Shown here: in pieces, positions 30,048-61,573 of the stretch
Layout: each line of letters starts with the position of its first letter
Numbering within the stretch: position 1 is the first letter of the stretch
Virus record (IMG/VR): IMGVR_UViG_3300025015_000009
Span: 64,001 to 128,000 of that record
Strand: one strand, 5' to 3'
Length of the DNA: 64,000 nt
Source of the DNA: a virus
Lineage: Duplodnaviria; Heunggongvirae; Uroviricota; Caudoviricetes
Program-made: the position numbers and the translations under genes
Notes under the pieces: generated by a model
Seen by the model: the letters and a program-made list of their open reading frames with translations, nothing else
Database searches by the model: none
Told to the model about the DNA's origin: nothing

Positions 30048-31190
30048 ATGCCTGGAATTAAAAAAAGTTGGGATTTTACCTCTGACGTTGCTCCGGGCAA
30101 GCTATTGAAGATAGATGCTGAGAATATACCAGACGACTTCTCACTGTATGCAAAGAAGTTGCTACCTTCTGAAGCAGAACAGGCGGCCGCGGTTGCACTA
30201 GCAAACAAGATAAAGAAGTACCAAACCGAACTTGCTAAACTAAAGAAACAACTTGCTGTTACTAACAAAAAACCTGCAATCAATACAACCACGCTGAAAC
30301 TATTCTCATACATCGACAAGCACTGTTCGAGTGTGGTTGCTACTGTTCGATCAACAAAAAAGGTACTGTATAGAGGTATGGATCAGGACGCCCCGTATTT
30401 TATCGGGCACCCGAGAAAAAATAGACACCCAAAAGATTCGTCTACTAGTAGTCAGAAGCAACTGGACAAGCTATTGTCCTCGCTTGGTTTTACTGCATTG
30501 CGTCAAAATAGTTTATTCGTAACATCAAATCCGAACTTTGCAGCACAATATGGTGACATATATGTTATCTTCCCTAAGGATCCATTTACCTTTACTTGGA
30601 GCTCTGAGTATGACGATGTAGTAATAGACGAACTAGACCTATTAGGTATCGACAATTTTGCCCTATTAGTAAACATAGAAGGTGCGTTCGCCGGCTATCG
30701 CAATGCTCTAAACACGTTTCTTTCAACAAATAAGTTGTCCCCACCATTGTCATCTGCACTTAGTAGAGCGTTACGCCAAGCCGACATTATTGCCGATAAG
30801 ATTGATCATTCACTACCGCACTTCTCTGGAAAAGCAATACAAAATAAGTACATCGACGATTACTTAAAATTCTGTGCATATCTTAATAAGGCAGTCCCTC
30901 AACTAGCGCAATCCAGCACACTAGTTCCTATTTCTAAAGAGATCTCAGCTATACTGCATCGAAAGAAAGAAACAACACAGTCAGCGTCTGCGTATTTAAA
31001 AGGCACGCCTGCGTCAGTTCTAGCAAGAAACCTCGTAACCAAGCATGGATTTAAGAACACAAACCTCGAAGCTGCAATAAAATCTGGACACGAGATATAC
31101 ATACATGGCGAGTATATCGCATTGCGTTTAAGTGAATTCGGTAGCGCAATTACTAAGTATTACCTTAAACCAATTGTAAAGAAGGCATAA
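30048..31190 (+). CDS. ADP-ribosyltransferase-like protein, paralog 4
   Basis: LYRG, RHPKDS, RQNSLFVTS, AAQYG, IFP...FTWS, GHEIY; N-terminus resembles 25912..27117. Confidence 0.65.
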   Translation: MPGIKKSWDFTSDVAPGKLLKIDAENIPDDFSLYAKKLLPSEAEQAAAVALANKIKKYQTELAKLKKQLAVTNKKPAINTTTLKLFSYIDKHCSSVVATVRSTKKVLYRGMDQDAPYFIGHPRKNRHPKDSSTSSQKQLDKLLSSLGFTALRQNSLFVTSNPNFAAQYGDIYVIFPKDPFTFTWSSEYDDVVIDELDLLGIDNFALLVNIEGAFAGYRNALNTFLSTNKLSPPLSSALSRALRQADIIADKIDHSLPHFSGKAIQNKYIDDYLKFCAYLNKAVPQLAQSSTLVPISKEISAILHRKKETTQSASAYLKGTPASVLARNLVTKHGFKNTNLEAAIKSGHEIYIHGEYIALRLSEFGSAITKYYLKPIVKKA

Positions 31191-31903
31191 TGTTTATATC
31201 TGAACTTTTTACCCCGACCTTAGCCGAAGGGCTGCACGACACAAACATATTCAAAGCCGTCTTTGTAGTTGGGCCTCCTGGGGCTGGTAAAGACACTGTT
31301 ATTTCGGCGCTTGACCTAACTAACCAACTCAAGAGCATCGACATCGACGACGTGATCTATCGGTTGAAGAACATACAGCAACAGAAACATCGAACCGAAC
31401 TAACACCAGGCTACAACCAACAAACATACGACATCGTTAACAAGCGGCAATCACTGTGGGTACAAAACTACCTAGGGTTACTTCTTAACCAGACTGGTCG
31501 GAACTACGAGCTGATCGCTGATACAAATAGAATGCTATTAGACGCTGGGTATTCGACGTATATGATCTTTATTAACACTGAAGAAGAAATGGCATTTACT
31601 CGAGTTAACGATCGAGTTAACACCGATTTGCTGCCAGGTCAGAAGAATAAAGACATAGGAAGAACAGTAGATGAACCGTATTTTGACAAAACATATAAAG
31701 CGGTACAACAAAACCGAGTTATGTTCAGCTTACTGTTCGGAAAGAACTTTGCATATATAGATAACAGCGAGGAACTATCTCCTGCTGATCTTCGAGCCGA
31801 AGTTGCTCAGGTAAGGCGAAAAGTTGCTGCGTTCTTAGCGGCACCACTTAGCGGCAAAGCACTAAGCATCACAAGTCGAATTGCACCGAAACGAACTACT
31901 TGA
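31190..31903 (+). CDS. P-loop kinase (zeta-toxin/AAA_33-like)
   Basis: LAE-GLHDTNIFKAVFVVGPPGAGKD; A..RV..R lid. Confidence 0.6.
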   Translation: MFISELFTPTLAEGLHDTNIFKAVFVVGPPGAGKDTVISALDLTNQLKSIDIDDVIYRLKNIQQQKHRTELTPGYNQQTYDIVNKRQSLWVQNYLGLLLNQTGRNYELIADTNRMLLDAGYSTYMIFINTEEEMAFTRVNDRVNTDLLPGQKNKDIGRTVDEPYFDKTYKAVQQNRVMFSLLFGKNFAYIDNSEELSPADLRAEVAQVRRKVAAFLAAPLSGKALSITSRIAPKRTT

Positions 31904-32198
31904 TGTGATTTGCCATTACACAGAAGACTAACCGCATTTCAACACTCTGGTAGAAGTCAGGCCAGATCTTCAATAGCTCTGCTTCACCTACCCGATCGTA
32001 CTTCTTTTCTTTACTTCGTTGAACTTCATCTAAATCATAACAACATGTATGCCGTTTAAAGTTAACGGTTTTCCCACGCGCTCCCCAACACGCATAATAA
32101 CTATCGTTTAGTTCAAAGGAAGCCCAGATCTTATCGTGCTCACCTTTACTGTCTTTATTATGACACCACCCAATAAACCTAAACTCTAGAGCAGCCAT
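31896..32198 (-). CDS. Hypothetical protein, WGR-like
   Basis: KIW...CWGARGK. Confidence 0.55.
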   Translation of the reverse strand: MAALEFRFIGWCHNKDSKGEHDKIWASFELNDSYYACWGARGKTVNFKRHTCCYDLDEVQRSKEKKYDRVGEAELLKIWPDFYQSVEMRLVFCVMANHIK

Positions 32199-34204: not shown

Positions 34205-34312
34205 TAAGATATAGTTAAATCACTGACTTAGTATACTATTCCGTACAATATACACCAAACCTCAAGTGACAGTCGGTACAAACCGTATACTAAGAGAAGA
34301 GTAAGTAATGTG

Positions 34313-34465
34313 TTACGAGTTATTTCCTGAGTTGGGGTCATTATAGATAAGTTGTTCATTAGATGGGGCCATAAGTTGTTCGAATTGGTCGTCAGTGATA
34401 GGAACATCACTGTTAACCGGAAAGAGAATTTCGTCCCAAGTGTATTGTCGCAATAGTGTTGTCAT
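34313..34465 (-). CDS. Small hypothetical protein (50 aa) coupled to flgK
   Basis: ATGA overlap with the flgK stop; MTTLLRQYTWDEILFP... Confidence 0.5.
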   Translation of the reverse strand: MTTLLRQYTWDEILFPVNSDVPITDDQFEQLMAPSNEQLIYNDPNSGNNS

Positions 34466-35484
34466 ACAATCGCAATCAGTGTATCAAAATTCTCTTTCTC
34501 GATTTGTATCACCTTAGACATCGCATCGTATAACTGCGTTGCACGTTGAATTTTCATTGTTTCGTCAACTACATTAACGCCGAACATCTGCTGATACGAA
34601 TCAAGTAATCGCTGCTTTGCTTCGGTGTCTGACAGTGTTTGAGTATCAATTTGATGTGAGACAATACCTAACTGTTGTAATATATCACCCATTGCTGTTG
34701 CTAACGTATCACCTGTTATCGAAGATGTTACTATCTGCGCACCCGTTAGTTGGTTGCTGTCATAATGCACTACCCCCGTTGATGTTCTGGTAATAGGCGA
34801 ACTACCAAACTCTGTGTTAATTTTAGCGATAGCTTTATCTAGTACAGCGTCAAACTTACCCTCTAGGTCAGGAATCACCCTGGTTATGAGATCCCCTTGA
34901 CCTCGCATCTTACCTTCAAGAGTAGAGAGTTCTTCTTGAACTGATGAGCGAACAGTATCATCAGTTATCAGTGACAACTGCACTTGGAGTTGCACAAGGC
35001 GGTCGGCATCGATGTTTTGCTGTTTCTGGATATTTGCTTTGACATCGGCGACAGACGAAGACCACGTATTGATATCAGCGGCCAACTGCTTACCGTAATG
35101 ATCTACATTTGCTTTGTTGCCAGCTGGATTACCTTTTTGTCGGAAGTCGTACACTGCACCTACAAACGAATCCCATGTATCTGCAATGTTAGAGTTTCTA
35201 GCAGAGAATTCTAAATCTTTTAAAGTTCGTTGTACCGTTTCGTCACTCACAACCAACTTAATAGACTCGTTCTTAGCTCGTTCCATGTTCGAGTCAAACC
35301 GACGTACCGCCGCAGCATCGACTCCTGCACGAATAGCACGTTCAGTATAGACAACGTCTGATCGAACAAACCCATTAGTATCTGCATTTGCTATATTGTG
35401 AGATGCAACTTTTATTTGCGCTTGAGCGGCTGCTAGGCCCGAAGAACCTATTCCGAACATTTGAGCATTTGATATTATAGCCAT
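34462..35484 (-). CDS. flgK: Flagellar hook-associated protein FlgK-like (shortened)
   Basis: SGLAAAQAQIKVASHNIANADTNGFVR N-terminus; GVNVVDET...YDAMSKVIQ...FDTLI C-terminus. Confidence 0.85.
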   Translation of the reverse strand: MAIISNAQMFGIGSSGLAAAQAQIKVASHNIANADTNGFVRSDVVYTERAIRAGVDAAAVRRFDSNMERAKNESIKLVVSDETVQRTLKDLEFSARNSNIADTWDSFVGAVYDFRQKGNPAGNKANVDHYGKQLAADINTWSSSVADVKANIQKQQNIDADRLVQLQVQLSLITDDTVRSSVQEELSTLEGKMRGQGDLITRVIPDLEGKFDAVLDKAIAKINTEFGSSPITRTSTGVVHYDSNQLTGAQIVTSSITGDTLATAMGDILQQLGIVSHQIDTQTLSDTEAKQRLLDSYQQMFGVNVVDETMKIQRATQLYDAMSKVIQIEKENFDTLIAIV

Positions 35485-35491
35485 TTGCTAT

Positions 35492-54588: not shown

Positions 54589-54681
54589 TGGTACTCCTGC
54601 TGGGTAACGCTCCCAGGACTTGCCCTCATCTAGAGCCTTGGCAGTTTATAAATCTGCTTGTTTTCTTTAAACTACAGGAGC
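54589..54681 (-). tRNA. Atypical tRNA-like gene, anticodon UAU (Ile), long variable arm, non-canonical T-loop
   Basis: GCTCCTG/CAGGAGT acceptor, ACCA end, GCAG/CTGC anticodon stem. Confidence 0.55.
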
Positions 54682-54686
54682 ATATT

Positions 54687-54757
54687 TGGAGCCGCATAGT
54701 GGATTCGAACCACTCACTTCCAGCTTCGAAGGCTAGAGTCTGTCCATCAGATGCGAC
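54687..54757 (-). tRNA. tRNA-Arg(UCG)
   Basis: CTAGC-CTTCGAA-GCTGG; GTTCGAATCC; CCA. Confidence 0.75.
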
Positions 54758-54765
54758 TTTGTTCG

Positions 54766-55437
54766 TTAATTCCACAACAGATCAAAGTTACCAGCCATCA
54801 CCTTCTTAACAGACGAGGTCTTATTAGTAATATGATCTTTAACCACGTCATCTTGAAACCGATACGTGCGTATCTTGTCTCCACGCATCCCTGTTCCGAC
54901 CTGAGCCTTCCTAATTGCTGCTGACTTCGCTGCACAACTGCTCGCAACCACGTTCTTTACCTGAGCTACTAGTTGATCATACGCCAGTTTATAGCTGTTA
55001 GTTCGACTTCTTGTTTGTGCAGTCTGTACAATTCCTGTTGGTATATGTGTTAATCTACACGACGACTTTATTTTATTTCTGTTTTGTCCGCCGCAACCAG
55101 TTCCGCTGTACCACTCTACTTTTAAATCTAATTCACTGACCTCGTGCAACTGGACTGTCGGATCAATCAACGCCACTGTTACCGTCGAGGTATGAACTCG
55201 GCCTTTTCTCTCTGTTGGCGGGACACGCTGTATCCGATGGCCCCCAGGTTCGTTGTTAAGTTTATCTAAATCACGTCCTTCAACTGCAATACAAATCTCG
55301 CCTGATCTTGCAGAAACCAAGCGGGTAGTTCAACCAACTCGTGTGAAGAACTTCTGATACGCTTGCGCCAAATCAGTAACAAACAATGCTGCATCTTCGC
55401 CGCCTTCAGCAGCCCGAATTTCTAATACACGTTTCAT
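54766..55437 (-). CDS. RF1-like peptide chain release factor lacking domain 1, in-frame UGA at codon 36
   Basis: LEIRAAEGGEDAALF...RVG*TTRL...GGHRIQRVPPTE (PxT)...GGQ...KIRTYRF. Confidence 0.85.
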
Positions 55438-55453
55438 GTTCAACTCCTTTAAC

Positions 55454-55747: not shown

Positions 55748-56068
55748 TTACTTCGCCAATCCCAATATAAAGTCGATCATAGTAGCAGCATCAGTCTGGC
55801 TTAGCTTTGGGTTCGCTGGCATCGGCATGGTTCCCCATACTCCACCACCACCGTTTACCACTTTAAGCGACAGTTTCTCTTTTGCGGCAGGATCACCCTT
55901 ATACTTAGCAGCAATACTAGAGAACGCAGGGCCAACAACTTTCTTATCAACTGCGTGACATGCAGTGCAAGTATATTTCTTTAACATGTCCGGAACTTCA
56001 GTTGACGCTGCTGCTTGTGTTGCCAACGTGCTCATTACCAACATACCAGTTACGATTATCTTATTCAT
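55748..56068 (-). CDS. Class I cytochrome c (c551/c552-like)
   Basis: Signal peptide, CTACH heme motif, VGPAF, GVWG..PMP Met ligand. Confidence 0.92.
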   Translation of the reverse strand: MNKIIVTGMLVMSTLATQAAASTEVPDMLKKYTCTACHAVDKKVVGPAFSSIAAKYKGDPAAKEKLSLKVVNGGGGVWGTMPMPANPKLSQTDAATMIDFILGLAK

Positions 56069-56116
56069 TTTAACTTCTCCTTGTGTGTACATCAGTTTCG
56101 ATGTTGATGTTAATGT

Positions 56117-56144
56117 ATTATACAGTCACGCACTACGTTGTCAA
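56117..56144 (-). promoter_or_regulatory. sigma70 promoter of the cytochrome c / release factor operon
   Basis: TTGACA-N16-TATAAT. Confidence 0.8.
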
Positions 56145-56151
56145 TCAAAAC

Positions 56152-56297
56152 GGAATTCCTATCCTTAGGCAGGAAACATATCAAGTATATGTTAGACCCT
56201 TCAGTTACTCTGTTGCCAGTTGGCATACCACTGAATCCGATATGCCCTCTCAAGTTAGTAGTTGCTGAAGGAATTCCACTCGCCTTAACTGTATTTA
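56152..56297 (-). ncRNA. Candidate structured ncRNA with its own late promoter
   Basis: GATAAATA then closed GGAATTCCT/AGGAATTCC stem with internal hairpins. Confidence 0.5.
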
Positions 56298-56300
56298 TCG

Positions 56301-56708
56301 TCAGTCATATGTCCACCCCAACGATTTCATCATTTTTTGCTTCACTCTTGTGTTTGGTAGGCGGAATACCAGTGGATCAGTAAACCCCATCATAACTCCG
56401 ACTTCAACGACTGCTCCCGAGCGACACATACCGGCAGTGCAATGAACAACAATATCCATTTGCTGTTCGATTGCTTTGCGCAACAGAGCAACCAATTGTT
56501 CGGCTTGCTCGTCTGTTACTCCGAACTCGTCTACATATTCGTCGTTGTCTTCAATATCAAGAAACTCGAATATATGCGTTTCCTTAAAAGCATGTGGTGA
56601 CTGAGGTGGCAATCCTGCTGGGTCAACTATCTGGATTGCAAGCATGTTATCACTAGTCGGATGATTTCCCTTTTTAAAGTCTATCGCTGAGGCGTTGTAT
56701 ATAAACAT
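56301..56708 (-). CDS. Protein-tyrosine/dual-specificity phosphatase-like protein
   Basis: VHCTAGMCRS CX5R motif; upstream F.D..D. Confidence 0.85.
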   Translation of the reverse strand: MFIYNASAIDFKKGNHPTSDNMLAIQIVDPAGLPPQSPHAFKETHIFEFLDIEDNDEYVDEFGVTDEQAEQLVALLRKAIEQQMDIVVHCTAGMCRSGAVVEVGVMMGFTDPLVFRLPNTRVKQKMMKSLGWTYD

Positions 56709-61155: not shown

Positions 61156-61232
61156 TGGCGTCCCTGCACGGAATCGAACCGCGTCTATTCTGATTTTGGA
61201 GACCAGTGCACCACCACTTATGCGTCAGAGAC
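61156..61232 (-). tRNA. tRNA-Trp(CCA), atypical A8/C9
   Basis: CTGGT-CTCCAAA-ATCAG; GCCA. Confidence 0.8.
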
Positions 61233-61499: not shown

Positions 61500-61573
61500 T
61501 GGCATCCCATGAGAGAATCGAACTCCCACAAAGAGATTTGGAGGCTCTTGTGCTACCTTTACACCAATGGGAC
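61500..61573 (-). tRNA. tRNA-Trp(CCA), second copy
   Basis: CTCCAAA loop; GCCA. Confidence 0.75.

Follow-up and report, generated by a model that had tools for sequence, protein, structure and literature searches.

A conserved in-frame UGA codon as a probable programmed recoding site in a phage gene for an RF1-type release factor

In the present study, a gene for an RF1-type release factor in the genome of a large phage was found to be interrupted by an in-frame TGA, and comparison with related genes indicates that this codon is a real, conserved and programmed recoding site. First, the TGA stands where cellular RF1 genes encode Trp, and it is kept throughout a deep clade of phage genes. Second, relatives in a separate clade reach the full product by a +1 frameshift, and this exchange of mechanisms suggests that what selection maintains is a termination-dependent gate. 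Third, we propose that the complete factor is probably made through readthrough of the UGA by tRNA-Trp in competition with the host RF2. The analysis was performed on a window of 64,000 nucleotides, which sits in a 318,013-bp IMG/VR virus record from groundwater metagenomes, and the parts of the gene in this window are as follows.

55444..55449, minus strand: Shine-Dalgarno sequence AAGGAG, 6 nt 5' of the ATG of codon 1
55437-55435, minus strand: start codon ATG, which opens the frame of 223 codons (54766-55437)
55333..55437, minus strand: codons 1-35, the N-terminal part of RF1 domain 2, including EIRAAEGG..D..LF
55330..55332, minus strand: in-frame TGA at codon 36 in the context GGT TGA A, the predicted recoding site, at the Trp column of RF1
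55299..55323, minus strand: 10-bp hairpin, 6 nt 3' of the TGA, a candidate stimulator of readthrough
54769..55329, minus strand: codons 37-223, with the remainder of domain 2, domain 3 and domain 4
55221-55213, minus strand: PPT motif
55092-55084, minus strand: GGQ motif
54766..54768, minus strand: terminal TAA

These positions and the translation agree exactly with the initial annotation, which had placed the ATG at 55437 and the TGA at 55330-55332, with the same frame running on to the PPT and GGQ motifs. The TGA of codon 36 is the sole in-frame stop of the window frame, and frame 0 resumes directly after it (GGT TGA ACT). Codon 1 likewise follows an AGGAG-type site in each of four other genes that were inspected (L002-L005), and TAA is the final stop in 83 of the 85 close family genes. 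The Pfam PCRF match covers residues 4-88 and thus spans the TGA (86.5 bits), and the Pfam RF-1 match covers residues 99-202 (68.8 bits).

The protein belongs with RF1 and is shorter at its N-terminus. All three NCBIfam models score it below their cut-offs: prfA gave 199.1 bits (NF001859, cut-off 400) in a match from profile position 107, and 191.7 bits with TIGR00019 (prfA, cut-off 423.25) in a match that begins at profile position 115; prfB gave 115 bits; and prfH (TIGR03072, cut-off 166.65) gave 44 bits, with residues 95-193 alone matching. Because the prfA match starts at profile position 107-115, domain 1 is absent. Against the sequences of solved structures, the protein scored 138 bits with RF1 and 77 with RF2, in an alignment that runs from RF1 residue 112/126 onward. 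In the alignment to solved RF1, codon 36 falls on the Trp of the "GW" sequence, and Trp, encoded by TGG, was observed at the equivalent offset in 68 of the 71 bacterial RF1 genes sampled, in support of the initial claim that the UGA occupies a conserved Trp position of RF1. The PPT and GGQ motifs are invariant in the family, and the Gln and His-Thr-Ser of the RF1 decoding region are retained in the window protein. An AlphaFold model (pLDDT 86) was best superposed on ribosome-bound RF1, with a TMq of 0.85-0.87 at 33-36% identity, and PrfH on a damaged ribosome followed at rank 50 of the structural matches, with a TMq of 0.71 at 23% identity. The initial annotation had likened the product to PrfH-type factors, and this comparison stands in one respect: PrfH/RFH, too, is without the N-terminal domain but has retained its decoding-like and GGQ domains (PMC6514570). 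The assignment itself gave way, however, as the window protein keeps the PxT region of RF1, scores under the prfH cut-off and far lower with prfH than with prfA, and fits the RF1 fold better, and RtcB (PF01139), the ligase that is a conserved neighbour of PrfH, was not found in the 318-kb genome, which is estimated to be 91% complete. By these comparisons, the gene product is predicted to be a "mini RF1" of 223 residues, comprising domains 2-4 with the PxT and GGQ motifs and without domain 1. RF1-type factors read UAA and UAG, not UGA, and the window factor, being of RF1 type, should lack recognition of UGA. In two relatives that use the frameshift site CTT TAG C (L190 and L212), PPT is replaced with SPL or SPT, nearer to the SPF of RF2, and the stop-codon specificity of these factors may differ from that of the members with PPT.

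The conservation of the TGA was examined in a set of 85 close genes, which consists of 80 IMG/VR loci fetched by conserved peptides, 4 contigs from sequencing runs and the window itself. Each of the 85 genes contains one in-frame stop, and this stop is always TGA; in 82 genes it is codon 36, and in the remaining 3 a difference in N-terminal length moves the same Trp column to codon 35 or 37. The remaining two Trp codons of the close genes are TGG. A wider sample was obtained from two further scans and counted as distinct C-terminal sequences. In all 102 distinct genes of the TGA type without domain 1, the frame is interrupted once by TGA; it occupies the Trp column in 99 and codon 47 in 3, and none of the 102 has TGG at the Trp column. 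The TGA is also kept in members that are only 48% identical, e.g. L086. The wider sample further included 17 genes with a +1 frameshift site and 3 uninterrupted phage genes, and all the bacterial RF1 genes with domain 1 in the sample are intact. Maximum-likelihood analysis placed the codon-36 genes, the window gene among them, in one deep clade (support 100/99). The initial annotation had proposed the comparison of TGA with TGG in homologs as the check on its reading, with TGG homologs as the result that would speak against it, and TGA was found throughout the TGA type.

Selection is evident on both sides of the stop. Residues are conserved before and after the TGA in the family, and 11 residues of codons 1-35 are invariant in 76 distinct genes although their codons vary, suggesting that this part of the frame is translated and under selection at the protein level. 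One transition would restore TGG, yet no codon-36 gene of the TGA type has TGG, which argues that selection keeps the stop, and the conservation of the TGA across the family excludes chance. Homologs with 55-71% identity numbered more than 100 in a protein search; most are of 222-225 aa with W at column 36, and a few are of approximately 184 aa. When traced to DNA, the homologs of approximately 184 aa begin just past an in-frame TGA, and translation of three of the "W" proteins works only with TGA as W. Both forms are thus annotation artefacts, and the W form arises where short contigs are translated under code 4 by gene callers. No match was obtained when the locus was compared by megablast with deposited phage genomes, and a protein search of these genomes gave matches of less than 60% identity only. 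Taken across the family, the conserved UGA is by far best read as a site of programmed readthrough.

The same gate is apparently built by another mechanism in related genes. In 17 of them, a Shine-Dalgarno-like element is followed by CTT and TGA, TAG or TAA, and the gene continues in the +1 frame; the pattern of this clade is GGAGG or GGGGG, a short spacer, CTT and then the stop. TGA is followed by C in 9 genes, by G in 2 and by A in 1, and the stop is TAG in 4 genes and TAA in 1. The CTT lies on the Trp column in 14 genes and at codon 47 in 2 (L130 and L179). For example, L130 reads GGGGG CAC CTT TGA C before the +1 frame, and L180-L182, which are close kin of L130 and L179, have an in-frame GGY TGA C at codon 47. 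Within the codon-36 TGA clade, L176 has TGG at the Trp codon and, two codons ahead of it, the frameshift site CTT TAG C. As the gate persists while the mechanism changes, the termination-dependent gate itself appears to be under selection, and this is the strongest argument of the present study.

The initial annotation had described the gene as an analogue of the prfB frameshift, and the analogy proved stronger than it was stated, as a separate clade of the family carries a prfB-like +1 cassette at the equivalent position. In both cases, a release factor gene is cut early by an in-frame UGA and its expression needs failed termination there, and the cassette of Shine-Dalgarno-like element, CTT and stop is borne by the relatives L130, L179, L183-L212 and L257. 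However, the +1 frameshift arrangement of prfB, in which a Shine-Dalgarno-like element precedes the slippery CUU UGA C, is absent in the window gene, where frame 0 is kept across GGT TGA ACT; the predicted event is readthrough without a change of frame. The window factor also differs in being of RF1 type, so that it cannot itself read UGA, and its site is located in domain 2 at a Trp codon, whereas that of prfB is in domain 1 at codon 26. A survey from 2025 found bacterial prfA to be free of programmed recoding and the frameshift motifs of prfB to lack TAG (PMC12421855), whereas CTT TAG is present in 4 of the phage relatives.

Several local signals might favour readthrough. GGY directly precedes the stop in 81 of the 85 close genes. 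At +4, A is found in 56 of these genes, G in 27 and C in 2, and T is absent; the commonest +4 base at the real TGA stops of the genome is T, and a U at +4 is reported to lower readthrough (PMC5289835). The synonymous codon entropy reaches the minimum of the gene at codons 37-45 (0.34, compared with a mean of 0.73), and in pairs with less than 72% protein identity, the identity of codons for the same amino acid is 0.66 over codons 37-45, compared with 0.38-0.53 in the other segments. A hairpin is predicted in this region. In the window (55323-55299), its minimum free energy is -13.2 kcal/mol (z -2.04), and across 46 distinct sequences of the family, 78% of the cells are paired at the equivalent place, compared with 29-42% in slid controls. 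The covariation score of the hairpin is 0.274, compared with at most 0.15 for the slid positions, and this score was reached by none of 500 shuffles. Relative to synonymous shuffles, the folding energy there is the most negative of 36 segments along the gene (mean z -1.53). However, the hairpin is not universal, as several members do not fit it, and the 10-pair model in the register of the window fits the family poorly (57% of the cells paired), the window using another inner register. The stem is also partly fixed by Arg, Gly and Glu codons, and RNAalifold gave no consensus structure for a stretch of 129 nt. Support for the downstream hairpin is therefore moderate and not decisive, and we know of no case in which downstream hairpins are established as stimulators of readthrough in bacteria. 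An intrinsic terminator or transcription attenuation was also considered and not adopted; although the hairpin is terminator-like in the window, the consensus of the family does not preserve a U-rich tail.

Trp-tRNA for the reading of UGA could be supplied by two phage genes in the window.

61156..61232, minus strand: tRNA-Trp(CCA) copy A, with A8, C9 and C11-G24 (ARAGORN fold)
61500..61573, minus strand: tRNA-Trp(CCA) copy B, with U8, G9, U11-A24 and a C31/U39 mismatch

The initial annotation had pointed to C9 in the phage tRNA-Trp as a means of readthrough. C9 is indeed present in copy A, but the other tRNA-Trp genes in the fetched loci have U8 and A9 in 15 of 15 distinct sequences, including six from four complete jumbo relatives, so that C9 is peculiar to this phage and not the device of the family. 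Besides C9, copy A has A in place of the near-universal U8. The U11-A24 pair of copy B was considered as a feature like that of the Hirsh suppressor and dropped, since it occurs in most of the other fetched tRNA-Trp genes. A tRNA-Trp(CCA) is found within 20 kb of the release factor gene in 4 of 5 complete jumbo relatives, and a UCA tRNA near this gene in none of the 5. The tRNA-Trp genes of the relatives were identified with ARAGORN on fetched regions of 40 kb, as BLAST gave weak matches only.

Herein, we propose that the mini RF1 of 223 residues is made through programmed readthrough of the UGA, with Trp inserted in competition with the host RF2 and a yield tied to the capacity for UGA termination, and we consider this reading probable, with real room for doubt. 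RF2 and tRNA-Trp compete at UGA. At GGU-UGA-A, the host RF2 would compete with the near-cognate Trp-tRNA(CCA), either that of the host or that of the two phage copies. When RF2 wins, a peptide of 35 residues would be released; when the tRNA wins, Trp, which is the residue of cellular RF1 at this place, would be inserted and the full factor would be made. The tRNA might be favoured by a +4 base that is never U and by the hairpin 6 nt downstream, which would lie at the mRNA entry channel with the UGA in the A site. Among the stops, tRNA-Trp can read only TGA, through a mismatch at the third position, which accounts for an in-frame stop that is always TGA. As the capacity for UGA termination goes down, the output of mini RF1 would go up. 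A shortage of RF2 would then increase readthrough, the mini RF1 would take over UAA, RF2 would be freed and the gate would close. Any such feedback must be indirect, because an RF1-type factor cannot read UGA, and an indirect loop between RF1 and RF2 is speculative. We infer each of these elements, namely the insertion of Trp, a yield set by RF2, the role of the hairpin and the logic of the feedback. In broader terms, a lineage of jumbo phages may have evolved a sensor of termination capacity, in which the host RF2 at UGA, or a prfB-like slippery site in the separate clade, sets the level of mini RF1; we hold the arguments for and against this wider proposal to be evenly balanced.

The main rival is a plain constitutive brake, in which a leaky UGA is read as Trp without regulation and acts as a fixed attenuator that holds a potentially harmful factor to a few percent of the output that its strong ribosome-binding site would allow. 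Such a brake would look identical in sequence, and the sequence demands no sensor. A strong Shine-Dalgarno element ahead of codon 1, together with an invariant stop, is consistent with this account, as is a 2025 study in which over-expression of release factors was harmful in B. subtilis, severely for RF2 and modestly for RF1 (PMC12421855). However, a weak ribosome-binding site would suffice for the same purpose and evolves easily, and the lineage keeps two termination-dependent devices at one site, i.e. readthrough and a prfB-like frameshift (at TAG in some genes). The frameshift device of prfB is known as regulatory. We regard a brake without regulation as rather unlikely, although it deserves to be taken seriously.

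A split gene, in which a peptide of 35 residues and a C-terminal protein of 184-187 residues (from TTG 55320) are made and the full-length product never is, appears very unlikely. ORF callers report the 184-aa ORF from the TTG; however, an in-frame ATG, GTG or TTG within 14 codons after the stop is present in just 16 of 76 distinct genes, at scattered positions, and the TTG at codon 40 is found in two genes, the window gene and one other. Furthermore, the stop breaks domain 2 between two elements of a single fold, a helix and a strand, and it falls exactly on the TGG codon, the one that tRNA-Trp can replace. The frameshift relatives also fuse both parts.

Still less credit is given to the insertion of selenocysteine at the UGA, for which the downstream hairpin would serve as the bacterial SECIS element. 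In the bacterial SECIS layout, the hairpin stands within a few nucleotides of the UGA, and a UGA with a hairpin within a few nucleotides matches the arrangement observed here. However, the aligned residue of cellular RF1 is Trp, not Cys, in those 68 of 71 genes; the site belongs to domain 2 and stands apart from the catalytic GGQ loop in domain 3; the loop sequences differ among subfamilies and share no motif; ARAGORN found no tRNA-Sec in the genome; and relatives reach the full product by frameshifting.

Also, the standard code applies to the genome, in which no recoded gene other than that of the release factor was found. The initial annotation had held that UGA is otherwise a true stop, and this was borne out: TGA terminates 68 of 314 long non-overlapping ORFs, and the coding density barely rises when TGA is taken as sense (0.890, compared with 0.877 under the standard code). 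TAA is the commonest stop and terminates 61% of the ORFs of the phage. The genome contains 31 tRNA genes and a tmRNA gene, and no UCA, CUA, UUA or Sec tRNA was found among the 31 with ARAGORN. As the full list of ORF pairs separated only by TGA is too noisy, the 8 best other candidates were taken for a Pfam check, and no Pfam domain across the TGA was detected in these pairs. Contigs from two groundwater runs are letter-identical to the locus at 14-16x; they possibly derive from the source sample and are thus not independent. The matches from sequencing runs are in contig form only, with a further contig (run X5) that covers a part of the gene, the TGA lying outside its coverage, and an RNA run that matches 34 nt of the tRNA region at less than 90% likeness. 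The known bacterial tRNA adenosine deaminase edits U-A-C-G. A sequencing error, a pseudogene, a genome of code 4 with TGA as Trp, or editing of the mRNA from UGA to UGG is the least credible of all. In favour of these readings, one transition from TGG to TGA is the simplest origin of the sequence, and code 4 is already applied to many relatives by gene callers; however, the TGA is invariant in the 102 distinct genes of a deep clade and identical in the contigs of two runs, TGA closes 68 ORFs, with a UCA tRNA absent and no real gain in coding density under code 4, and the window site is G-A-A, unlike U-A-C-G.

The release factor gene is embedded in a tRNA array of the phage, and tRNA genes are present within 3 kb in 57 of the 85 related loci. 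The following features adjoin the gene in the window.

54589..54757, minus strand: tRNA-Arg(UCG) and tRNA-Ile(UAU), which begin 9 nt after the stop of the release factor gene
56117..56144, minus strand: promoter-like sigma-70 consensus, TTGACA, 16 nt and TATAAT, with 12/12 matches (a consensus match only)

The promoter-like site is followed by a co-oriented run of genes for a cytochrome c, a zinc ribbon of 43 aa, the release factor, tRNA-Arg and tRNA-Ile, and it is likely the operon promoter, as predicted from the consensus. Ahead of the release factor gene (55748-56708, minus strand) lie an ORF resembling a Cys-based dual-specificity phosphatase, the cytochrome c with a signal peptide and the zinc-ribbon ORF of 43 aa. 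Elsewhere in the window, an ORF at 34231-35487 (minus strand) matches flagellar rod domains (Flg_bb_rod, 1.8e-7; Flg_bbr_C, 2.1e-5), and an ORF at 31169-32056 (plus strand) matches the Zeta_toxin / AAA_33 kinase family (7.7e-10). The arrays of two relatives also contain unusual RNA genes. In a relative of 362 kb (L269, G003:C1:141000-160999), a tRNA with a CUA (amber) anticodon, reported by ARAGORN as Pyl(cta), is located within 20 kb of the UGA-gated gene, and a tmRNA with the tag AANDAVFALAA is likewise located within 20 kb of the release factor gene. In a relative of 364 kb (L272, G004:C1:221000-240999), ARAGORN reported a tRNA with a four-base anticodon (tttc) in an array of 45 tRNAs, which could be a quadruplet-reading tRNA or a misfold.

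Known systems resemble the proposed readthrough in part. In the RNA phage Q-beta, the A1 extension of the coat protein is made by UGA readthrough with tRNA-Trp. Both phages would rely on low-level decoding of UGA as Trp by an ordinary tRNA-Trp in a leaky context. However, the stop of Q-beta ends a complete protein that readthrough extends, whereas the stop in the window gene interrupts a single fold, so that a working factor can come from readthrough alone, and it replaces an ancestral Trp codon. In stop-recoded phages, a stop is reassigned in many genes, with suppressor tRNAs and with the genes for the code change kept in the standard code (Borges et al., bioRxiv 10.1101/2021.08.26.457843). 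These are also large phages with their own class I release factors beside tRNA genes, whereas the window phage uses the standard code throughout and has no suppressor tRNA, and its sole recoded gene is that of the release factor. Papers on huge and recoded phages, including the one above, report phage RF1 and RF2 genes and mention no internal stop (bioRxiv 10.1101/2021.08.26.457843), and a review of release factors covers PrfH and no phage form (PMC6514570). Full-text searches of the literature gave no description of a stop-gated RF1-type gene in phages. To our knowledge, recoding control of release factor genes is a textbook case for RF2 only, and the gate of the phage RF1-type gene is a new take on the prfB theme.

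Thus, an RF1-type gene gated by a stop codon is present in more than 100 phages, and such genes are now either cut to a fragment of approximately 184 aa or translated with the wrong code in annotation. The family provides a natural series for the conversion between types of recoding and for the effect of a hairpin on readthrough in bacteria. If the sensor reading is true, programmed recoding would be described here for the first time in an RF1-type gene, one class I factor would for the first time be seen to gate another, and the family would offer a natural swap of readthrough and +1 frameshifting at one site. The presence of a factor without domain 1 in the tRNA and tmRNA arrays of phages implies that big phages may tune termination besides decoding, and through such a sensor, were it to operate, the phage could rebalance the activities of RF1 and RF2 in the infected cell.
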